DNA from: Escherichia virus ECH1
Reading direction: 5' to 3' (one strand)
Sequence record: MN164484.2
DNA: 46,054 nt
Both the position numbers and the translations under genes were made by a program. Shown here one piece after another: positions 20,695 through 33,650 of this stretch (positions are counted from its first letter, which is position 1; each line of letters begins with the position of its first letter). A model generated the notes under the pieces. The model searched no databases and was not told the DNA's origin. It worked only from the letters and a program-made list of their open reading frames with translations.

Positions 20695-23600
20695 ATGATC
20701 AAAACAAACATGAGGCTTTGTGATCTGGCTGAAGAGATTAAGATTTATGGTGCTAAGGGTGGTAGCCAGAAGCAGCACCAACCAGTGGAACAAGAAGACA
20801 ACCTGATTTCATTAAACAAGGTTAAGGTATTACTTGCGGTTGCTGACGGCGAGGTGGATCCAAACTTCTCAATGAAGGATTTATACCTTGCTGACGTTCC
20901 GGTGCAAAACCAGGATGGCAGCTACAACTACGAGGGTGTTCGCGCTGAGTTCCGTGCTGGTACGCAGTATCAGGACTATATCGCTGGCCTTGATGGTGCT
21001 AACTCAGAGATTCAGGCTTCCAGGGAAATCACAAACGACACCCCGTACATCATTGCGGTTAACAATAACCAGCTATCGGCAATTAGAGTCAAACTTTTTC
21101 GGCCTCGGTTGGTTAAGCAAGAAAGTAACGGCGACCTTGTCGGAACTACGTGCGAGTATGCGATTGACCTTTCCGTTAATGGTGGTGCTTACCAGGAATA
21201 CACTCGCGGAGTTGCTAACGGGAAGACCACTACAGGTTACGACCGCAGCATTCGCGTGAACCTTCCTGCAGAGTTTGATAGCGCATTGGTTCGCATCCGT
21301 AAGATTACAGCAGATTCAACAAGTAGCACGCTGGTTAACGGAATGCAGATTACAACCTATCAGGAAGTAATCGACGCTAAATTCCGCTATCCGCTTACGG
21401 CACTTGTTTATGTTGAGTTCGGCTCTGACTTGTTCCCTAACGGCATCCCGACAATCTCAATCAAGAAGCGATGGAAGTTAATTCAGGTCCCAACGAACTA
21501 TGATCCTGAGACTAGAACCTACAGCGGCACGTGGAATGGCCTGTTCAAAATGGCGTGGTCAAACAACCCTTCCTGGGTTCTTTATGACTTAGTGACAAAC
21601 CGCCGATATGGTCTTGATCAGCGAGAGCTTGGTGTAGAGATTGATAAATGGGGACTGTATGAAGCTGCGCAATTCTGCGACCAGATGGTGCCGGATGGTA
21701 AGGGTGGAATGGAACCGCGATATCTATGCGACATGGTTGTACAGAACAAGGTTGAGGCCTACACACTAATTCGTGACATTTGCTCAATCTTTCGTGGACT
21801 GACTTTCTATGATGGAGAAAAGATTGGTATCGTGGTTGATAAACCTCGCAATCCATCTTACATCTTCACTAATGATAACGTTGTAAACGGATTATTCAGC
21901 CGCACTTTTGCCAGCGATAAAAGCCTTTACACTACGGCAAACGTTCAGTTTGATGATGTGGAGAACAACTATCAGCAGGATGTTGAGCCAGTATTTGAGC
22001 TCGAGGCTACTCGCCGATTTGGTTTTAACCCGGTCGACCTAACGGCAATTGGATGTACGCGAAGAAGTGAAGCAAACAGACGCGGAAGATGGCTACTGAA
22101 AACCAACCTGAGAAGCGAAACTATCAGCTTCACTACCGGGTTGGAAGGCATGATTCCGATGATTGGTGAGGTTATTGCGGTTAATGACGCTGCATGGTCG
22201 AGCAACTACCAGTTAAACCTTTCCGGTCGTATTGAATCAGTTCAGGGATTGCAGGTTTTCACCCCGTTCAAAGTTGACGCGGCACCGGGTGACAGAATTC
22301 TTCTGAACAAGCCTGACGGAAGCCCGGAAGCAAGAACTATCGCCAGCGTTTCGGAAGATGGTAGAACTATCAACCTGAATACTGCTTTTAGTTTTGTAGC
22401 TCAGCCTGACACTGTATTCGCAATCGATAAGGATAATCTGGCGCTTCAGCAGTATGTTGTGACCGGGATTCAAAAAGCAGATTCTGATGGTTCGGATTCA
22501 TTCCAGTATACGATTACCGCGGTGGAGTATGACCCGAACAAGTATGACGAGATTGACTACGGCGTTAACATTGTTGACCGTCCAACTTCAATTGTGGAAC
22601 CTGACAGATTATCGCCACCAGAAAACCTGACCGTGTCAAGTTATAGTAAGGTTGTTCAGGGCTTGTCGGTTGAGACGATGGTTATCGGATGGGATAAGGC
22701 TCCATACGCTAAAACCTACAATGTTCAATGGAGGAAAGAAAATGGTAACTGGATTAACGTACCCAGAACAGCAAGTACAGAGGTTGATATCGAAGGTATT
22801 TACGCAGGAATCTATGACGTTAGGGTTCGCAGCGTATCAGATACTGAAAACGTGTCTGCCTGGTCTGACATTGTAACTGTATCACTAACTGGCAAGATTG
22901 GACGTCCTTCGGCACCTACTGTTATCACGGCGTCAACTGATGAGGTATTTGGCATCCGTGTTAAATGGGGATTCCCTGATAGCTCTGGTGATACTGCTTA
23001 CACTGAGCTTCAGCAGGTTCCTGATAATGGCGATGGTACTTACAATCCTGATAACGCAAGCTTGCTGACGTTGCTGCCTTATCCAGCCTATGAATACTGG
23101 CATACGCCTATTCAGCCAGGTAAGGTTATCTGGTATCGCGCAAGATTGATTGACAGAATCGGCAACACCTCTGATTGGTCTGATTTCGCTAGAGGCATGA
23201 GTACTGACGACGCCAACATTATCAATGATTACATCAAGGTTGATATAGAGGGTTCGGAAGGATTCAAATACCTCGAGCAGAATGCGATTCAAAAGAATCA
23301 GGACATTCAGAATCAGGCAGAGTCAATTCTTGAGAATGCATTAGCTAATGATGCCGATGTTCGCCGGATGACCAAGGAGAACGGCAAACGTAAGGCTGAA
23401 TATGTTCAGACGGTGAATCTAATAGCCGATGAAACTCAGGCACGCGTAGAGGCTCTCACCGCACTTAAAGCGCAGATAGATGATGAAGTTGTAGCATCGA
23501 TTACGGAAGTTCAGACAGCGCTAGCTACCGAGACAGAAGCAAGGACCACCGCAGACACGGCTCTATCAGCAAGACTCGGTGATAACGAGTCGGCGATAAA

Positions 23601-24111
23601 CCAGAAATTAGACGCATTTTCCAATGCCACCTCAACTGGCGTGCAGTACGGAATTAGTCTTGGCCTGAAATACAATGGTCAGACTTATTCATCCGGCATG
23701 AGCATGGAGCTCGTTGGCACTGGTGATAACGTTCGTAGTCAATTCATTTTTGACGCAAACAGGTTTGCGATCAGTAACGGCATCGGTTCTGGCTCCGGTC
23801 AGTGGCAATTACCATTCGTTGTCGAGAACGGAAACGTAATCATCCAGAGCGCAGTTATCGGTGATGGTTCAATCAGCAACGCGAAGATTGGTAATTTTAT
23901 TCAGTCGAATAACTATGTGGCAGGAACTACGGGTTGGAGGATTGATAAATCAGGAAGTGCAGAGTTAAGCAACGCCACTGTAAGAGGTAATCTTTACGCT
24001 AACAATGGCAACTTCGCATTTAACGGAACCAATAACACGGTTCAGATTAACAATAACGGAATCACTGTAAACTTACCGAACGGAGGAAGAGTGGTAGTTG
24101 GAGTGTGGTAA
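20695..24111 (+). CDS. tail tip host-specificity protein (lambda gpJ-like central fibre)
   Basis: 1138 aa; last gene of the M, L, K, I, J series; repetitive beta-rich C-terminal region. Confidence 0.8.
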   Translation: MIKTNMRLCDLAEEIKIYGAKGGSQKQHQPVEQEDNLISLNKVKVLLAVADGEVDPNFSMKDLYLADVPVQNQDGSYNYEGVRAEFRAGTQYQDYIAGLDGANSEIQASREITNDTPYIIAVNNNQLSAIRVKLFRPRLVKQESNGDLVGTTCEYAIDLSVNGGAYQEYTRGVANGKTTTGYDRSIRVNLPAEFDSALVRIRKITADSTSSTLVNGMQITTYQEVIDAKFRYPLTALVYVEFGSDLFPNGIPTISIKKRWKLIQVPTNYDPETRTYSGTWNGLFKMAWSNNPSWVLYDLVTNRRYGLDQRELGVEIDKWGLYEAAQFCDQMVPDGKGGMEPRYLCDMVVQNKVEAYTLIRDICSIFRGLTFYDGEKIGIVVDKPRNPSYIFTNDNVVNGLFSRTFASDKSLYTTANVQFDDVENNYQQDVEPVFELEATRRFGFNPVDLTAIGCTRRSEANRRGRWLLKTNLRSETISFTTGLEGMIPMIGEVIAVNDAAWSSNYQLNLSGRIESVQGLQVFTPFKVDAAPGDRILLNKPDGSPEARTIASVSEDGRTINLNTAFSFVAQPDTVFAIDKDNLALQQYVVTGIQKADSDGSDSFQYTITAVEYDPNKYDEIDYGVNIVDRPTSIVEPDRLSPPENLTVSSYSKVVQGLSVETMVIGWDKAPYAKTYNVQWRKENGNWINVPRTASTEVDIEGIYAGIYDVRVRSVSDTENVSAWSDIVTVSLTGKIGRPSAPTVITASTDEVFGIRVKWGFPDSSGDTAYTELQQVPDNGDGTYNPDNASLLTLLPYPAYEYWHTPIQPGKVIWYRARLIDRIGNTSDWSDFARGMSTDDANIINDYIKVDIEGSEGFKYLEQNAIQKNQDIQNQAESILENALANDADVRRMTKENGKRKAEYVQTVNLIADETQARVEALTALKAQIDDEVVASITEVQTALATETEARTTADTALSARLGDNESAINQKLDAFSNATSTGVQYGISLGLKYNGQTYSSGMSMELVGTGDNVRSQFIFDANRFAISNGIGSGSGQWQLPFVVENGNVIIQSAVIGDGSISNAKIGNFIQSNNYVAGTTGWRIDKSGSAELSNATVRGNLYANNGNFAFNGTNNTVQINNNGITVNLPNGGRVVVGVW

Positions 24112-24117
24112 TAAATA

Positions 24118-24140
24118 AAGCCCCTTAATTGGGGCTTTTC
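24118..24140. terminator. bidirectional terminator (AAGCCCC-TTAATT-GGGGCTT) between convergent genes
   Basis: Hairpin with T-rich runs on both strands. Confidence 0.6.
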
Positions 24141-24142
24141 TT

Positions 24143-25114
24143 TTAGTAGAAGCTTGGAATAAATGGAAGTGCCATTGATATATTTGTGTCGAAAGGGAAC
24201 TGAGCGCCAGTCTGAGTTGAATAGTTACCTATTACAGAGCCAGGAACAGCCCTAACAGAGCCTCCAGACATGCAAACGCCCTTGTATCGCAAGTTGTTAT
24301 ATCCTCCAGTAACTCTAGTCGTAGCGCCACATCTAAGAATAGGGAAGAATCCACCATTTATTGACTGATATCCATTGCTTATTTGTATAAATCCACTAAG
24401 TACGAATGGTCGCCTAACGCTTGAAAAAACAATCTGACCAGAGCTATTTGACATTGTTAGTCCTGGTCCGGCTGGTGGTGGTTCATTTCTGAATATCACC
24501 AGCTGAACATAAGTACTTGCCGAAACATCATCTGTACCTCCGTAGGTTATATCCCTGCACCATATTGTTGATCCATCTGATTCAAGTGATACGTTTGGAT
24601 TATCCCACTTGCCGAATGGTATGCCGCTAACTGGTAGCGATGCCGCCCCGTTAACCTGTATGCCTCCAACCCATGCTGCTGACATTAGTCTCGAGTTGCT
24701 TGATATAGCAAGGAAATCAGTTGAGTTCTCAACGAGTATCCCTGGGCTTGATGAAGATGATGCTGGTAGAATTTCAAAACAATTACCCGCAAAGTCAATT
24801 ATTCGACCATTGGCACCATTGAAGTTACTAAGTGTTATCCTGCCAACTCCGTCATTAACCTTTTGGAATCCGTTCATGTAATAAACTTCAGGTATAACAT
24901 CGTAAGCATCAACGTGGACTGCCTTCGTTGGTAGGCAGAAAGCCGTAGAGCCAGGAGACATTGTCAATCCAAAATCCCACGAACTTGCTGGGGTTGAAAG
25001 TCCATTGGTATTTATTGATCCAGTCACAGCAGGTGCCCTTAATCCTGCCGTTATTTCCATCGCTGGTCTTCCGTCATTGAGGTCAATCAATATACCCTGC
25101 GGCATTATTTCCAC
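24143..25114 (-). CDS. putative receptor-binding/distal tail protein (323 aa)
   Basis: Gly/Ser/Asn-rich beta-type composition; co-transcribed with the lipoprotein gene; convergent with J. Confidence 0.35.
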
Positions 25115-25356
25115 TCCTTGCTGCCATGATCTGCAATAGAGCCACCGTAACCGCCGCCAGCCTTGCTTTCAATTCCGGCGTAGCGAACATCAACCTCACC
25201 AGCCGGAACAACTACGCCACCTTTCCATTTAGCTACGCACACACCATTTGCTTGTGTTGCACACCAACCATCCGGGCGAGGACCAGATGAGCAACCTACC
25301 ATCATGATTGCTGCTGCGGCGATGATTGAAAGTTTGATTAATTTAGTCATTTTCAT
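25105..25356 (-). CDS. lipoprotein, candidate superinfection-exclusion protein (Llp/Cor-like)
   Basis: Lipoprotein signal ending in MVGC; mature part about 61 aa with two further Cys; 10-nt overlap with the downstream gene. Confidence 0.6.
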
Positions 25357-25392
25357 GTTCCTTAGAATGTGTGTTTCGTTTTGATGGAGTAA

Positions 25393-25436
25393 TCATATCT
25401 TAACTGTTAGGTTTGTCTTTAGCTATTCGTGCTATT
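25393..25436 (-). promoter_or_regulatory. conserved promoter-like cassette on the minus strand (AATAGCACGAATAGCTAAA, TATGAT)
   Basis: Reverse complement of 25418-25436; leader CCATCAAAACGAAACAC; drives the lipoprotein operon. Confidence 0.5.
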
Positions 25437-25724
25437 CAACCATCTGTTATATTTATCCCTCTCCTTGATTGCCTTTTCAAGTGACTTGAATCTTAAAAGT
25501 AGCGGCATACAGTCAACACCCATAATTAAGGATTCGTCGCAGCTATTTGCGCCAGTCAGCCAAAGAGAGAAGTATTGTTGGTCGAGGCCGTAGTTCCTGT
25601 CTTTATTGACCCTAACGCTAACAACTTTAAATTTTAAACCAGCCAACTTAACCTTATCTATAAATTCTGACTTTTTCAGCTTGTTGCTCCTTTTTAGTTT
25701 ACCTGGAAATGGTACATCACCCAT
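25419..25724 (-). CDS. hypothetical protein (about 100 aa) ending in NSTNS encoded by the motif
   Basis: ATG at 25724 lies 10 nt after the minus-strand motif at 25735-25753; last codons are the next motif copy. Confidence 0.3.
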   Translation of the reverse strand: MGDVPFPGKLKRSNKLKKSEFIDKVKLAGLKFKVVSVRVNKDRNYGLDQQYFSLWLTGANSCDESLIMGVDCMPLLLRFKSLEKAIKERDKYNRWLNSTNS

Positions 25725-25734
25725 GAGATTTGTC

Positions 25735-25753
25735 TTCAGCAATTAGTGCTATT
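25735..25753 (-). promoter_or_regulatory. motif copy on the minus strand (AATAGCACTAATTGCTGAA)
   Basis: Read as reverse complement; too close to the ATG to be a standard promoter. Confidence 0.35.
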
Positions 25754-25807
25754 GGTTACGCGTAACCGATGTAACTCGATGTATACCATATCCATCCGCG
25801 GGAAATC

Positions 25808-25848
25808 CGTTACGCCATATTACGCCCAGTTACGCTTTAGTTACACTA
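25808..25848. repeat. four direct repeats of TTACRC (iteron-like)
   Basis: CGTTACGCC, ATTACGCC, AGTTACGCT, AGTTACACT read directly. Confidence 0.5.
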
Positions 25849-25877
25849 AAATATCTATATATATAAAGGGTTTAGAT

Positions 25878-25920
25878 AATTATTATTATTATCTATATAT
25901 ATAGTGTAACTGCTGTAACT
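25878..25920. repeat. AT-rich block (TTA)n-TATATATAT plus GTAAC-N4-GTAAC; copy of 249-288
   Basis: About 80 percent identical to the block at 249-288. Confidence 0.6.
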
Positions 25921-26032
25921 CATAATATTGGTATGTTGCGTTTGTTTTTCTATATGATGATTATCTTTGTTATCTGGCGTGGCTAAATGGATGTAGGGTG
26001 TGGTGCACCACATAAAAGATACCGTTACATTG

Positions 26033-26060
26033 GTTACATGTGAGTTACATTGAGGATTTA
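26033..26060. repeat. three direct repeats of GTTACAT
   Basis: CCGTTACATTGGTTACATGTGAGTTACA read directly. Confidence 0.5.
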
Positions 26061-26225
26061 TGCGGTCTGCGGTGGCTAAAAACGTAACAAAGGAGAGCCT
26101 ATACATGAAATTACGTCATTTGACGCGTAATCATAATTTATTAATCGGTGATATCTATTGGACTGCGCTGCCACCCTCTCATATGATCAACCCATCGAAA
26201 GCAAACAACCATAGAGAGACGCAAA

Positions 26226-26420
26226 ATGGCTTACTTCATCATTAAAGAGAAAAAAAACGCACTATTCGGCGACTGCTACTTCGGAGGTGAGGCAGGTTAC
26301 ACTACAGATAAGAATGAGGCAGACCGATTTGAAACGAAGGAAGATGCCAAATCTGTCCTGACCGGATACTTCACAGAAGAAGATTTTAAATTGGTTAAGA
26401 TTGTTAAGGTTAAGGAGTGA
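26226..26420 (+). CDS. hypothetical protein (64 aa)
   Basis: First plus-strand ORF after the control region; leader contains CCCATCGAAAGCAAAC. Confidence 0.4.
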   Translation: MAYFIIKEKKNALFGDCYFGGEAGYTTDKNEADRFETKEDAKSVLTGYFTEEDFKLVKIVKVKE

Positions 26421-29254: not shown

Positions 29255-32074
29255 TTATGAAGCTGTATTTACCTGAAGATATGCACCATTAGTTGCACCA
29301 AACCATGCGTAAGCAGATCCGTAAGTTGTTGGGTTATCATTTAAGATGAAGTCACCCGCTCTAATTACGCACTTTTCTCCATATTTATCAGTTGGCCTTG
29401 CACTAAAACCATAATCAACATATCTAAAACCAACCTTCGTTACGTTATCGTTAAGAGGAAAAATCCGAAAGAAGCTAGAAGCCCTAAAGTCATTGTTCCT
29501 GAAAACGCCTCCAGTAAAGTTATCCATGTCAAACATAGTTGTTAAGCTTGCACCAACAGTATTCCTGAACTTGTTACCTTCGTATGTTGGAGAGATTACT
29601 TCATAGTCAACCCTCAACTGAATAAATCCCCCATCAATAATATTGTCCTTGACTATTGGATATTGCCCGCCGATTGCTAAGCCACCAAACCCAGGTGTAA
29701 ATTTGCAACTATTATTACTAAATATAGTGCCAACCCACGCCTGATTTGTAAGGTATGGTGCCTTAGTATCTGTCATGGTGTTCCCGGTGATAATCAATCC
29801 ATTCTTGGCCTGGATTCCCTCCTGGTAGCCCTGAATCGCTACGCCGCCACCAATCATAATGTTGCTGGATATAATAATGTTGCTCAACCCCTCATTAACA
29901 CCCCAATCACTTTCTGCATCATTTGTTATCAGTAAGTAGTGAGAAGAAGCCCTGCCAGTAGCGTCCGTAGTTATAATGCTTGTATTGCCTTTGCATATAA
30001 CATTGTTTGCCGCAAAAACCTCAACAAATATACCAGCACCTTCGTAGTAGTTATCCGTAACCGTTACGTTATTGCCAGCCGGGGTTATCCTTGACTGGAT
30101 AGATATTGGATAATAGAACTTGTTGGCGTGAGCGTAAGACATTCGGCTTCTCTCGGATATTGCATAATCCTCCGCGAAAGTATGCCATGCCCTTCCTGAC
30201 TGTTTTGTTGTGTTTCCTATAAACTCTGAGTAGTCACAGTTTCTTGTGATTAAGCAGTAGTTAGCGTTGTATCTGAAGCTTGAATTTCTAAGAGATACGA
30301 ATGCATTAGGTAAGCCATTAAGAGCATCGGCATTAACAAAGGCCCTCGAGGCATTAACCTCCATACCCTCGATCACAACTGATGCGCATCCTTCAACCAT
30401 AAAACCAAACCAGTCTTCTCTTGGTTTATGCTCTGTATCCGTTGGTTGGATTGAGTAATCTGAAAAGTCAGTATTCCAGTTGAGTCCGCTAGCTTTAAAT
30501 GTGCAATCTTTAAGCCCGAAAACAACCCTCTCGGGTGATGTGCTTCCAGAGATATCAATATCAACATCATTATTGGCAAAAATGTCAACAGTAAGTCCAT
30601 TGAGGAAGAATGCCGTTTGCCTTAACACTCTGTACTTATCATTGTACTGAACACCATCGGAGAATGAGACTTTCAGTCTTCCAGCGCTAAGTCTTACCTT
30701 CCTGTTTGTATTGTGACCAAGGTTTATACATGCCATAACCGAGGCGTTTGATTCATTAACTCCAGACACATCATGACCAGCCCATTCGGTATGGATATCA
30801 TCAACACCTCCCGTAAACCTAACCCAGCAACCATTTTCACCTGGTGATGTCTCACCCGCTCCGCTAAGGAAGCCTGGTAGCGTGGAATATGTACCATCAA
30901 ATGGAACTGTTGGGCTAAAGATGGTAACCCCATTGTGACTACTCTTGCTTACTGATGGATCCCAGTAAAACAAACCACCTCCAGAGTTTGCTCCAGAAAT
31001 ATAAGACCTGACATTTGCCAAGTTTCCATTCGTAGTTGGTTGCCGGATTAGTTCATAAATTGAATTAACTGAAGATAGCCCTAAATTACTCCTGGCAAGG
31101 CTTTTATCTTTAATATCAGAGAAATTCAATGATTTGTTGAAAGTCTCAGATTTTGAATAAACATCAAGTAAGCCCCTTACTCGCTGGGCGCTAGCGCCGC
31201 CAACCCGACTTCCTGATGCGACATAAAGCGCCTCTCTTGAATAGTAAGTTTTGCTTGGTGCCGTGCCAGTCTGAGTTAAATCAATCACCCTGTACGCATC
31301 ATCTGAGCCGGTAGATGCTGAAACTTGTATGTTCTTAACACCAGTAAGCCCCCTTGCTGACTTAACCTCAATCGCACAAAGTGCGCTATCGGAGTAGGTT
31401 GTATTTATCACCTCTGGAGCGTTGATCATTGCTGACTTTTGGCATAGGTATCTAGCCCCGGACTTGAAATCAAACGTATTCCAGTCAAGTTCTGTCAACT
31501 GAGGTGTATTCGAGCCACCAATACCAATATTGGCAAGAGTTACCAAAGTACCAGCGTCACCAGCATTATTAATTGCTTCAATTGTAGCGTCACGGGCAGC
31601 TGTTGTTGTGTTTCTTGCACTAACAGCAGTAGCAGCGCTATCTGCGGCGGCAATCTGGCTAGCTAAAGCATCCGCTGCTCCTTGCACTGACTGGCTTGCC
31701 AATTGCTCAAAGCGAGGCCAATCAAAAGAATCCTGACCAATGAAATCAATCAGGCTCTGAATGCTAGTTTCCCTACTCTGATAATAACGAAGTGTCTCCG
31801 CTACATTTTGAGCCAAACCCTGAACGCTAATCCCATCATGAGCAAGAATGGCATATCCAGTACCAGCAGGAACAGTTTCGCCATTTGGGTTATATACAGA
31901 CAATGAAGTGTCGCTGGTGATTTCAGAGATGGTGTAAATCTGCACAGGCTCTGTTTTGAATACAATTGTAGCACCAACACGGATTAGCGTTAGTGGCATG
32001 GTCCATTGAGTGCCAACACCAGTAACTTGACCGTTAGCTGCTAAACTGGCAGTTCCAGTATCATAAATTGCCAT
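29255..32074 (-). CDS. tail fibre/tailspike protein, possibly with a beta-helical depolymerase-like central domain
   Basis: 939 aa from ATG 32074; N-terminal fibre-anchor-like domain; long Asn/Gly/Ser/Thr-rich repetitive region. Confidence 0.55.
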   Translation of the reverse strand: MAIYDTGTASLAANGQVTGVGTQWTMPLTLIRVGATIVFKTEPVQIYTISEITSDTSLSVYNPNGETVPAGTGYAILAHDGISVQGLAQNVAETLRYYQSRETSIQSLIDFIGQDSFDWPRFEQLASQSVQGAADALASQIAAADSAATAVSARNTTTAARDATIEAINNAGDAGTLVTLANIGIGGSNTPQLTELDWNTFDFKSGARYLCQKSAMINAPEVINTTYSDSALCAIEVKSARGLTGVKNIQVSASTGSDDAYRVIDLTQTGTAPSKTYYSREALYVASGSRVGGASAQRVRGLLDVYSKSETFNKSLNFSDIKDKSLARSNLGLSSVNSIYELIRQPTTNGNLANVRSYISGANSGGGLFYWDPSVSKSSHNGVTIFSPTVPFDGTYSTLPGFLSGAGETSPGENGCWVRFTGGVDDIHTEWAGHDVSGVNESNASVMACINLGHNTNRKVRLSAGRLKVSFSDGVQYNDKYRVLRQTAFFLNGLTVDIFANNDVDIDISGSTSPERVVFGLKDCTFKASGLNWNTDFSDYSIQPTDTEHKPREDWFGFMVEGCASVVIEGMEVNASRAFVNADALNGLPNAFVSLRNSSFRYNANYCLITRNCDYSEFIGNTTKQSGRAWHTFAEDYAISERSRMSYAHANKFYYPISIQSRITPAGNNVTVTDNYYEGAGIFVEVFAANNVICKGNTSIITTDATGRASSHYLLITNDAESDWGVNEGLSNIIISSNIMIGGGVAIQGYQEGIQAKNGLIITGNTMTDTKAPYLTNQAWVGTIFSNNSCKFTPGFGGLAIGGQYPIVKDNIIDGGFIQLRVDYEVISPTYEGNKFRNTVGASLTTMFDMDNFTGGVFRNNDFRASSFFRIFPLNDNVTKVGFRYVDYGFSARPTDKYGEKCVIRAGDFILNDNPTTYGSAYAWFGATNGAYLQVNTAS

Positions 32075-32096: not shown

Positions 32097-32115
32097 AATA
32101 GCACGAATTGCTAAA
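32097..32115 (+). promoter_or_regulatory. motif copy between primase and tail fibre genes (operator-like)
   Basis: Palindrome centre only about 32 nt from the tail-fibre ATG, which is incompatible with the usual motif-to-start geometry. Confidence 0.35.
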
Positions 32116-33088: not shown

Positions 33089-33158
33089 ATGCACCTCCAT
33101 AAACAATAAAGGCACTATACATAATGTAGAGTGCCAATGTTTATCAAATCGTGCTTTT

Positions 33159-33650
33159 TTACTCTGCTTCTCTCTTTTTCTTATTCTCTTCTTTAATCTT
33201 ACGCCATGATCTGGCAGGCGGCTTTGTTGCTAACTCCTCTTTCTTAACAACTCTAAGCATTTCTCGACGGTCACAACGCAATGTTAAAGGCTTACCATTA
33301 CTATCAAATCGAAGGTCTGGACGAATGAAGCTAGCTCGATAACCCTCGCCTGTACGCTTGTACTTACCGTGTAATTTCTGCGCACCTTTAGCTGAAATCA
33401 TTCCGCGTTTACACCATTCAGAAACTACTGCATGTGTCACATTAGCGGCTTTTGCTAGCTTCGATTTACCACCATAAAAATCAAGTACAATCTCAAGTCT
33501 GGCGCGTAAACTAGCTCTCACCTCATCCTTCAAAGTGTAGTAGCCATAAGGTCGACTACGTTCTTTCTTGTCTTCACCGCGCTGAGTTCCGTTATTACCA
33601 TTTAATGTGCGCTTGTCTACTTCACCAGTTGATGCCGCAATTCTCGTCAT
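33159..33650 (-). CDS. helix-turn-helix DNA-binding protein
   Basis: HTH-like segment SKLAKAANVTHAVVSEWCKRGMIS; basic Lys/Arg-rich C-terminus; divergent from the helicase. Confidence 0.5.
   Translation of the reverse strand: MTRIAASTGEVDKRTLNGNNGTQRGEDKKERSRPYGYYTLKDEVRASLRARLEIVLDFYGGKSKLAKAANVTHAVVSEWCKRGMISAKGAQKLHGKYKRTGEGYRASFIRPDLRFDSNGKPLTLRCDRREMLRVVKKEELATKPPARSWRKIKEENKKKREAE

Follow-up and report, generated by a model that had tools for sequence, protein, structure and literature searches.

The minus-strand gene pair beside the J-like tail-tip gene of Escherichia virus ECH1 (MN164484.2) is, as judged by homology, very probably an LptDE-targeting terminal-receptor module of a T1-like siphophage, in which a receptor-binding protein would be combined with a superinfection-exclusion lipoprotein. 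The probability of this reading, including the docking on J, the promoter and the exclusion phenotype, is estimated at about 0.9. An earlier interpretation made from the DNA alone (the sequence-only reading) had already proposed a receptor-binding protein and a cognate exclusion lipoprotein at this site, and this is supported by published work on close homologues and by PDB matches. The system and its mechanism are known, having been published between 2021 and 2025 for close relatives. The RefSeq labels 'membrane protein' and 'putative phage lipoprotein' hide the probable terminal-receptor role, and the value of the assignment lies in annotation and prediction: the phage is expected to need LptD, to infect FhuA-deficient 'T1-resistant' laboratory strains and to fail on hosts with the published EL11 deletion in lptD.

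Organization of the locus

The stretch of DNA analysed (the window, 46,054 nucleotides) is a whole Drexlerviridae genome, which is 97.7% identical from end to end to that of Escherichia phage vB_EcoS_ACG-M12 (Drexlerviridae, Guelphvirus). The J-like tail-tip (central fibre) protein of 1138 aa is encoded on the plus strand (20695..24111) and was recognized by Pfam (Phage_Tail_Tip, FNIII-A_GpJ and Phage-tail_3) and by PHROG ('central tail fiber J'). The receptor-binding protein is presumably carried by J. Downstream of J and convergent with it lies a minus-strand operon of two genes, in which the lipoprotein gene (25105..25350) is followed by the receptor-binding protein gene (24143..25105) with an overlap of 1 nt. 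J stops at 24111, and the oppositely oriented receptor-binding protein gene at 24143. A convergent minus-strand pair at this site had been described in the sequence-only reading, and every element of that description was found. Receptor-binding loci of this kind have been defined downstream of gpJ (Maffei 2021, PMC8594841), with which the position in the window agrees. The earlier designation 'host-range locus' is appropriate in so far as this is the terminal-receptor locus, but it is not the sole one, as the lateral tail fibre gene (29255..32074, minus strand, 939 aa) is a second determinant.

Homologues of the 320-aa receptor-binding protein and of the lipoprotein were found in 418 and 384 phage records, respectively. 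The defence-system and NCBIfam libraries gave no match for either protein or for gp39 (101 aa), which is encoded upstream, and a PDB search with gp39 did not yield a meaningful match. Open reading frames on the opposite strand of the locus (e.g. 24609..24881 on the plus strand, 90 aa with a TTG start) are regarded as chance ORFs.

The predicted receptor-binding protein

The product of the distal gene (RefSeq gp41, 'membrane protein') had been read as a protein of 323 aa, which stems from a GTG codon at 25114. This codon sits within the Shine-Dalgarno sequence, and all nine of the nine aligned siphophage homologues begin with M-x-x-G-I at the ATG. The protein is consequently 320 aa long. It is a member of PF20051 (DUF6453): the score is 467.6 bits where 25 are required, and the match (E 2e-140) spans the entire profile of 291 positions. 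In the PDB it matches chain C of 9RPT, the receptor-binding protein of phage Oekolampad on LptDE, with E 1.9e-65 over residues 2-315, and the Oekolampad protein is itself found in DUF6453 (E 2e-121). Over the full length the identity amounts to 95.9% with OzMSK_038, 42.0% with the protein of Oekolampad (Bas18) and 41% with that of Bas01; with Rtp44 it is 39.6%.

The match to 9RPT_C and the models of the OzMSK protein by Black et al. suggest that the fold consists of two lectin-like beta-sandwiches and that its tip bears loops. These loops diverge among the homologues, and those predicted to contact LptD were reported to be the least conserved part of the protein (Black 2025, PMC13035648). Because the identity to the solved protein is about 40% and the contact loops are least conserved, details of the binding mode may deviate from those of the solved complex. 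Binding to LptD is nevertheless predicted. It has been described that OzMSK fails on two lptD loop-deletion mutants, which is evidence obtained with the whole phage and not with the isolated receptor-binding protein (Black 2025, PMC13035648).

The lipoprotein

The open reading frame of the lipoprotein (25105..25356, minus strand) contains two possible ATG start codons. A Shine-Dalgarno sequence AAGGA, read from the sequence at 25359..25363, stands at a distance of 8 nt from the ATG at 25350, whereas only 2 nt separate it from that at 25356. This spacing makes the second ATG, which gives a precursor of 81 aa, the likely start, and the first (83 aa) the less likely one. The starts in RefSeq and of Rtp45 also correspond to the ATG at 25350, and AAGGA or GAGGA is kept across an alignment of seven phages.

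The precursor has an N-terminal signal peptide (maximal 15-residue Kyte-Doolittle value of 2.4 at residue 6) and, as noted before, a clear lipobox, M-V-G-C with Cys20, followed by two further cysteines, Cys30 and Cys38. The mature lipoprotein counts 62 aa, where about 61 had been read. The segment ...AAAIMMVG-C20-SSG is the same as in Rtp45, with Ser at position +2. In Escherichia coli, lipoproteins with a residue other than Asp at this position are sorted to the outer membrane. The profile of PF24052 (Phage_lipoprotein) is matched over all of its 80 positions (E 1e-38), with a score of 131.6 bits at a cutoff of 27, and chain D of PDB 9RPS, which is Rtp45 on LptDE, was matched with E 9e-38. 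The identity is 87.7% with the OzMSK lipoprotein, 80% with Rtp45 and 36% with that of Oekolampad. No variation was seen across 10 homologues at G19, C20, C30, C38 and 15 further columns.

The structural roles of Cys30-Cys38, of the strand and of the hairpin were taken from Dunbar 2025 (PMC12685063). Residues 30-35, the strand paired with LptD 318-323, read CATQAN here and CATQAS in Rtp45, and in the hairpin segment that follows one residue differs. An in vivo exclusion assay for Rtp45 was not found in the literature consulted, exclusion being argued from the 9RPS structure.

Expression signals

Upstream of the lipoprotein gene, at 25373..25435 on the minus strand, lies one copy of a repeated promoter-like motif of about 60 nt, AATAGCACGAATTGCTAAAG-N~19-TATAGTTACYCCATCGAAACGA. 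This copy consists of an imperfect inverted repeat TAGCA-N5-AGCTA (25434-25420), a -10-like TATGAT (25397-25392) and a conserved TTACTCCATCAAAACGAAAC leader. The first half of the motif has 11 matches in the window at three mismatches or fewer, where 0 are expected by chance. The motif represents a family of 62-nt repeats, of which at least 15 copies, oriented like the gene that follows, precede a start codon by 60-90 nt. It is kept upstream of the lipoprotein gene in seven phages although the upstream neighbour gene varies. A generic sigma-70 scan of 23900-26300 gave six sites where 6.1 were expected, and since this equals the chance level the scan is uninformative on its own and the genome-wide motif analysis was used instead. 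The evidence for a promoter is thus carried by the repeated motif and not by weak sigma-70 hexamers. Of the motif promoter that had been claimed, the motif copy and its repetition throughout the genome are found as such, and promoter activity at 25373..25435 is suggested by its recurrence.

The stop codon TAA of the lipoprotein gene (25107-25105) overlaps the ATG of the receptor-binding protein gene (25105-25103) as TAATG, and the Shine-Dalgarno sequence of the latter, AAGGAG (25114..25119, minus strand), is contained in the 3'-terminal part of the lipoprotein gene, with 8 nt between it and the ATG. This arrangement makes the translational coupling that had been proposed plausible. The 1-nt overlap is kept in six related phages (Rtp, OzMSK, SU57, EC3a, ES and Bas01).

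Between the stop codons of J and the receptor-binding protein gene, a hairpin at 24117..24138 was called as an intrinsic terminator on both strands (8-bp stem with five GC pairs, T-runs on both sides), common to J and the operon. The RNA fold has an energy of -13.8 kcal/mol (z = -3.2), and none of 200 shuffled sequences was as stable. In the records of SU57 and EC3a the corresponding hairpin carries a terminator annotation. In the proposed scheme both genes would be co-transcribed from the phage's own promoter motif, translationally coupled, and ended at the terminator shared with J. It is not obvious that joint transcription of an 'early-useful' exclusion factor and a late structural protein would be optimal.

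Exchange of the receptor-binding cassette

In the comparison with phage Rtp, a DNA identity of about 90% gives way to one of about 50% in the stretch from roughly 23940 to 25140. Apart from its last ~80 aa, J has 98% identity to its Rtp counterpart, and the only parts that are swapped are the receptor-binding gene, the tip of J and the tail of the lipoprotein. This drop, together with the 98% identity of J, the 40% of the receptor-binding protein and the 80% of the lipoprotein, points to cassette exchange, as expected of a host-recognition module. The locus constitutes a clean natural case of such modular exchange, in which J and the lipoprotein are almost unchanged, and is relevant to host-range engineering.

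The last ~55 residues of J (about 23947-24111) covary with the subtype of the receptor-binding protein, which is also tracked by a 5-aa indel and by the final residues of J, VGVW versus VGTF. In the tail of the lipoprotein a Gly-rich insertion of five residues was present in all six examined phages with the receptor-binding subtype of the window and was absent from both of the Rtp type (Rtp and Bas01). It may be that more than the receptor-binding gene is exchanged as one unit, which would also take in ~55 codons at the end of J and the tail-coding 3' part of the lipoprotein gene (breakpoints near 23940 and at 25140-25200). If functional, the linkage would mean that the lipoprotein tail is tuned to how its own receptor-binding subtype binds, and consequently that exclusion among LptD-dependent phages is subtype-specific and not generic; the engagement of LptD by this subtype would perhaps be unlike that in the Oekolampad complex. 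This extension of the model is considered rather unlikely.

Proposed mechanism

The 320-aa protein would be a stand-alone protein that docks non-covalently on the distal end of J via its conserved N-terminal base. Its loop-bearing tip would be inserted from the outside into the LptD barrel, touching extracellular loops such as EL4, EL5 and EL11, and this contact would lead to irreversible adsorption and trigger DNA delivery. The lipoprotein precursor would be exported, lipidated at Cys20 and, with its Ser at +2, sorted to the inner leaflet of the outer membrane. There it would bind the periplasmic side of LptDE and send its beta-hairpin up the barrel lumen, by which loop EL4 would be displaced. 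With EL4 displaced the receptor should no longer accept the receptor-binding protein, so that superinfecting LptD-dependent phages would be excluded and progeny would be spared waste on debris. Cryo-EM structures are available of the Oekolampad receptor-binding protein on LptDE and of Rtp45 on LptDE, and exclusion by Rtp45 has been attributed to steric displacement of EL4 and not to allostery of the FhuA-Llp type (Dunbar 2025, PMC12685063). For Oekolampad, both the binding to LptDE and a requirement of infection for the LptD loops EL4, EL5 and EL11 have been shown.

Alternative explanations

The locus could also be a literal T5/T1-type module, consisting of an FhuA-binding pb5-like protein and a lipoprotein of the Llp/Cor family that inactivates FhuA by allostery. 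The arrangement of a small lipoprotein beside a receptor-binding gene near the tail-tip gene is alike, one related record (H14) names its homologue 'Cor superinfection exclusion protein', and the lipoprotein itself weakly matches the PHROG of this name (phrog_1119, E 0.011). However, a match over the full length of the Cor profile was not obtained, as these 17 bits are confined to residues 8-36 (signal peptide and lipobox) and compare with 123 bits for phrog_4281. Neither protein matched pb5 or Llp in Pfam, where the lipoprotein passes only PF24052. A PDB search with the 320-aa protein at E up to 1 gave only 9RPT, though FhuA-pb5 is present in the PDB as 8A8C, and a search with the lipoprotein at E up to 10 gave Rtp45 (9RPS) and noise but not Llp. 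Moreover, OzMSK, with its 96% identical receptor-binding protein, was isolated on T1-resistant (FhuA-disrupted) strains and is LptD-dependent (PMC13035648), which renders an FhuA module extremely improbable. The parallel with the T5 and T1 systems drawn in the sequence-only reading thus holds for function and gene arrangement and not for sequence: with Pfam, PHROGs and the PDB no similarity was detectable, so that the resemblance to pb5/Llp and Cor is a functional one. The predicted receptor is LptD, not FhuA. That this subtype of the 320-aa protein uses another receptor, or needs a second outer-membrane protein in the way that the related Braunvirinae phage Bas01 depends on both NupG and LptD, might be supposed from the divergent tip loops and the identity of only 40-42% to Rtp44 and the Oekolampad protein. 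Against this stand the LptD dependence of OzMSK and the 80% identity of the cognate lipoprotein to the LptDE-binding Rtp45. The NupG requirement of Bas01 has been ascribed to a distal GpJ domain, and the J protein of Bas01 has a divergent segment with a 32-aa insert that is absent from J of the window, which is Rtp-like at this place; a NupG co-receptor was rejected for that reason. A different or additional receptor is accordingly judged very unlikely.

Hardly any weight is given to the view that the database labels are correct, which would make the 320-aa protein not a virion component but a host 'membrane protein' or moron. Its RefSeq product name and phrog_1265 ('membrane protein', category 'moron, auxiliary metabolic gene and host takeover') say so, but these are propagated automatic names, and the protein has neither a signal peptide nor a segment of transmembrane strength (maximal 19-residue Kyte-Doolittle value of 1.08). 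A serious though less probable possibility is that the lipoprotein serves chiefly to prevent new virions and newly made receptor-binding protein from being caught by LptD on the lysing cell and on its debris, instead of excluding incoming phages, and that it may modulate LPS export. A protective role of Rtp45 for progeny against debris was reportedly proposed by Wietzorrek in 2006. Such a role would fit a lipoprotein gene that is co-transcribed and coupled with a late structural gene and is not placed among the early genes, yet the timing of expression cannot be read from the promoter motif because this also precedes non-structural genes. Both roles are listed by Dunbar 2025 (PMC12685063); they are not mutually exclusive, as both would follow from one receptor blockade. 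The LptDE-targeting receptor and exclusion module hence remains the preferred reading.

Comparison with known systems

The closest counterpart is formed by 038 and 039 of OzMSK/MSK (PMC13035648), which agree with the window in receptor-binding subtype, in their place after J, in overlapping by 1 nt and in the terminator. Upstream, OzMSK has a DNA methylase gene where the gene for the 101-aa gp39 stands here, and its lipoprotein bears no annotation beyond 'hypothetical'. With rtp44/rtp45 of phage Rtp (9RPS; PMC12685063) the locus, the two Pfam families, the lipobox, Cys30-Cys38 and the hairpin segment are held in common. The C-terminal tail of the lipoprotein, in contrast, has KGSSG in Rtp at the place where it carries the five-residue insertion here, the tip of J differs by the five-residue indel, and the receptor-binding protein is of a different subtype, given its identity of only 39.6% to Rtp44. 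In Oekolampad (Bas18, Dhillonvirus) both families (PF24052 with E 2e-21) and the gene order by J are found again in bas18_0025/bas18_0026 (PDB 9RPT/9RPW/9RQI), and its receptor-binding protein was solved bound to an open state of LptDE. It belongs to a different genus and has 2 nt between the genes, whereas these overlap in the window.

The resemblance to more distant systems is one of logic. In T5, too, the tail tip carries a stand-alone receptor-binding protein, pb5 (oad), and the neighbouring gene encodes a small lipoprotein of the periplasm with a single disulfide, Llp, which keeps the receptor from binding pb5 (PMC9586334). Its receptor, however, is the TonB-dependent transporter FhuA, and Llp acts by reverse allostery, whereas Rtp45 physically displaces EL4 from inside the barrel. 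The Cor lipoproteins of T1, phi80 and N15 belong to different protein families and are directed at FhuA and not at LptD, but in the Drexlerviridae they occupy the same slot downstream of gpJ, as alternative alleles of one modular locus (Maffei 2021, PMC8594841).

Genes of the operon

Two minus-strand genes converging with J had been taken, in a sequence-only reading, to encode a lipoprotein and a larger protein acting as an exclusion protein and a receptor-binding protein. Database searches supported this interpretation through matches to DUF6453/9RPT and to PF24052/9RPS, as did the genetics of phage OzMSK. The J-like tail-tip gene (20695..24111, plus strand) and the operon meet, as described, at a hairpin at 24117-24138 (-13.8 kcal/mol, z = -3.2), which was called as a terminator on each strand.

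The small lipoprotein gene is present (ORF 25105..25356, minus strand), and its product begins with a hydrophobic segment and carries the lipobox M-V-G-C plus two more cysteines. The spacing from its Shine-Dalgarno sequence AAGGA (25363-25359, minus strand) is 8 nt to the second ATG (25350) but just 2 nt to the first (25356), so that a precursor of 81 aa is most likely; the RefSeq annotation and Rtp45, the homologue from phage Rtp, have the same start. The cysteine that takes the lipid is Cys20, which leaves a mature part of 62 aa, near the earlier estimate of about 61 aa. Over its full length the protein belongs to Pfam family PF24052 (E 1e-38), and it matches chain D of PDB 9RPS (E 9e-38), which is Rtp45 on the periplasmic side of LptDE, the outer-membrane LPS translocon. 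Pairwise identity is 87.7% with OzMSK, 80.2% with Rtp45 and 35.6% with Oekolampad (Bas18). An alignment of ten homologues, distant ones included, shows no variation in the Cys30-Cys38 pair or in 17 further columns.

The overlap of the two genes was likewise found: the lipoprotein stop and the downstream start share TAATG (25107-25103, minus strand), and AAGGAG lies 8 nt ahead of the start. Annotations of Rtp, OzMSK, SU57, EC3a, ES and Bas01 show this 1-nt overlap too. The length of 323 aa proposed for the larger protein was not borne out. It would require a start at the GTG at 25114, which sits within the AAGGAG Shine-Dalgarno sequence, and was rejected; since M-x-x-G-I stands at the ATG in 9/9 aligned siphophage homologues, the length is 320 aa (24143..25105). 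The 320-aa protein matches Pfam DUF6453 over its full length (E 2e-140). One sequence in the PDB was matched, chain C of 9RPT/9RPW/9RQI (residues 2-315, E 1.9e-65), which is the Oekolampad receptor-binding protein on LptDE (Dunbar et al., 2025, PMC12685063), and pairwise identity is 95.9% with OzMSK, 42.0% with Oekolampad and 39.6% with Rtp44. Its N-terminal base is nearly invariant across subtypes in the alignment. The label 'membrane protein' is unsupported, since no stretch of the protein is hydrophobic enough for a transmembrane segment.

LptD as the probable receptor

Allelic receptor-binding loci and their cognate exclusion proteins directly after gpJ track the terminal receptor in Drexlerviridae and related genera, and one such allele pairs with LptD (Maffei et al., 2021, PMC8594841). 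OzMSK, a laboratory contaminant that lysed FhuA-deficient strains, does not infect either of the two Maffei et al. mutants with lptD loop deletions (Black et al., 2025, PMC13035648). Membership of DUF6453 and PF24052 supports LptD as the probable receptor of the phage studied here. The genetics of the system were described in 2021 and its structure in 2025, and the present pair is a close relative of those of characterised phages.

By homology, the lipoprotein would, after export and lipidation at Cys20, reach the outer membrane, to which its serine at +2 would direct it under the established sorting rule. It would then bind LptD near strands 5-8, between LptE and LptM, as in the Rtp45 structure, in which the strand of residues 30-35 (CATQAS; CATQAN in the window lipoprotein) pairs with LptD 318-323. 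In the same structure a hairpin rises in the barrel lumen and displaces extracellular loop (EL) 4 of LptD by up to 20 Å, by which binding of the receptor-binding protein is lost. Such a block would account for exclusion, a phenotype that we infer from the structure; an in-vivo exclusion assay for Rtp45 was not found in the literature available. The receptor-binding protein itself would dock on the distal end of J, the central tail tip, through its conserved N-terminal base. Its tip would enter the LptD barrel from outside and contact EL3-5 and EL11, as shown for Oekolampad (PMC12685063); there, binding and infection are lost with the LptD point mutations D352Y and Y671N.

A repeated motif upstream of the operon

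A motif promoter had been assigned to the operon. A generic sigma-70 scan of the operon region gave 6 sites against 6.1 expected, which is chance level. The motif itself is real and non-random: it belongs to a family of about 60 nt with the layout AATAGCACGAATTGCTAAAG, about 19 nt, then TATAGTTACYCCATCGAAACGA, and 11 sites in the window match its first half, against an expectation of none. The copy 5' of the lipoprotein gene lies at 25435..25373 (minus strand). At least 15 copies stand in matching orientation 60-90 nt upstream of the start codons of structural and non-structural genes, for example at 2116, 2747, 5966, 13126, 18846, 27584, 33663, 36163, 39122, 39689 and 40779 on the plus strand and at 25435, 25752, 44831 and 46013 on the minus strand. 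At 32098 (plus strand) the first box occurs alone, followed by a hairpin.

Within the first box is an inverted repeat, TAGCA-N5-TGCTA, whose centre lies about 42 nt before the transcription start that the -10-like box implies. Activator-dependent promoters have this geometry. The motif may act as a promoter. A candidate regulator is gp29 (33144..33650, minus strand; phrog_2856), a helix-turn-helix protein whose stop codon in the window comes 5 codons ahead of the RefSeq end. The Rtp genome reportedly carries conserved inverted repeats upstream of genes, putative Rtp52 sites.

The motif upstream of the lipoprotein gene is kept in seven related phages, among which the gene farther upstream varies (DNA methylase, anti-repressor, gp39, or none). 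In the window this slot, between the operon and the divergent early region, holds gp39 (25419..25742, minus strand; 101-107 aa, phrog_4423), which had no matches in Pfam, NCBIfam, PADLOC or PDB. Its stop codon falls within the promoter-like motif of the operon. It has a motif copy of its own (25752..), and the annotated ATG (25724) falls within the spacer of that copy. The annotated start is doubtful, because the PHROG profile sets in at codon 22 when the gene is read as 107 aa, where a CTG follows AAGGAG.

Mosaic structure of the locus

The window is a complete Drexlerviridae genome of 46,054 bp. The operon region is 99.9% identical to Escherichia phage vB_EcoS_ACG-M12 (NC_019404.1; Braunvirinae, Guelphvirus), with 2 substitutions across both genes, both in the larger one. 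Over the whole length identity is 97.7% (1042 mismatches, 19 gap openings), so the window is a very close relative of that record and no exact copy. The two have the same length yet are not identical, compensating indels moving the register at about 12.9-17.9 kb; phage SCS31 (ON081052.1) is likewise exactly 46,054 bp.

Against Rtp, the identity of J is about 98% over about 1050 residues and 78% at its end only; that of the receptor-binding protein is 40% and that of the lipoprotein 80%. DNA identity drops from about 90% to about 50% between about 23940 and 25140; within the lipoprotein gene, the 5' part is back at 92%. At the eight Drexlerviridae loci examined, differences in two places track the receptor-binding subtype: at the tip of J, a 5-residue indel and VGVW versus VGTF, and in the tail of the lipoprotein, a Gly-rich insertion of 5 residues. 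Judged from these alignments, the pattern agrees with horizontal exchange of such loci (Maffei et al., 2021, PMC8594841) and with a compatibility between J tip and receptor-binding protein that a 2026 preprint suggests. A less ordinary and rather improbable reading is that the lipoprotein tail co-transfers with the receptor-binding subtype because exclusion is subtype-specific. In Klebsiella Drexlerviridae the lipoprotein is 62-64% and the receptor-binding protein 30-31% identical to those of the window; across host genera the periplasm-facing exclusion protein is far slower to evolve than the surface-facing receptor-binding protein.

Bas01, reported to require NupG and LptD, has a 32-residue insert in J, whereas J of the window lacks it and so gives no sign of a second protein receptor. 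The operon had also been called the host-range locus. It holds as the terminal-receptor locus, not as the sole one for host range: a lateral tail fibre gene (29255..32074, minus strand; 939 aa, phrog_24092), lying between genes for recombination and that for primase, is a second determinant. It serves the primary or glycan receptor and does not depend on the locus next to J.

Both families outside Drexlerviridae

Kuravirus/Gordonclarkvirinae podophages encode both families, unlinked and about 45 kb apart. The DUF6453 protein gp19 of SU10 (NC_027395.1, 20058..21089, plus strand; locus L009:3902-4933) has E 2e-23 and 25% identity to the window protein; its gene directly follows the tail-needle gene, and the J-docking N-terminal motif is absent. 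The PF24052 lipoprotein phi32_106 of phiEco32 (EU330206.1, 66050..66331, plus strand; locus L011:1447-1728; E 2e-36, 38% identity) conserves the Cys pair and an RPDGWC motif. The SU10 cryo-EM paper does not mention 'gp19', and no literature linking Kuravirus podophages to LptD was found. By family membership, LptD may be an unrecognised terminal receptor of these podophages, and their unlinked genes are possibly of more interest than the operon itself.

The 'Campylobacter phage' records A127, A120 and A118 contain near-identical or clearly homologous copies of the E. coli-type LptD module. 'Pseudomonas phage PsgS01F' also has a copy; the length of this record, 44,679 bp, and its scores equal those of an E. 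coli phage record. The host labels of these four records look doubtful.

Comparison with the T5 and T1 systems

The proposed parallel with the receptor-binding protein and Llp/Cor pairs of T5- and T1-like phages stands for function, as drawn by van den Berg et al. (2022), and fails for sequence similarity. Neither operon protein gave a Pfam or PDB match to pb5 or Llp, the FhuA-binding pair of T5, and the PHROG of the T1-type exclusion lipoprotein Cor matched the signal peptide alone (E 0.011). The reported mechanisms differ as well: the Rtp45 type works by physical displacement of a loop inside a barrel that is not TonB dependent, whereas Llp acts by reverse allostery in FhuA.
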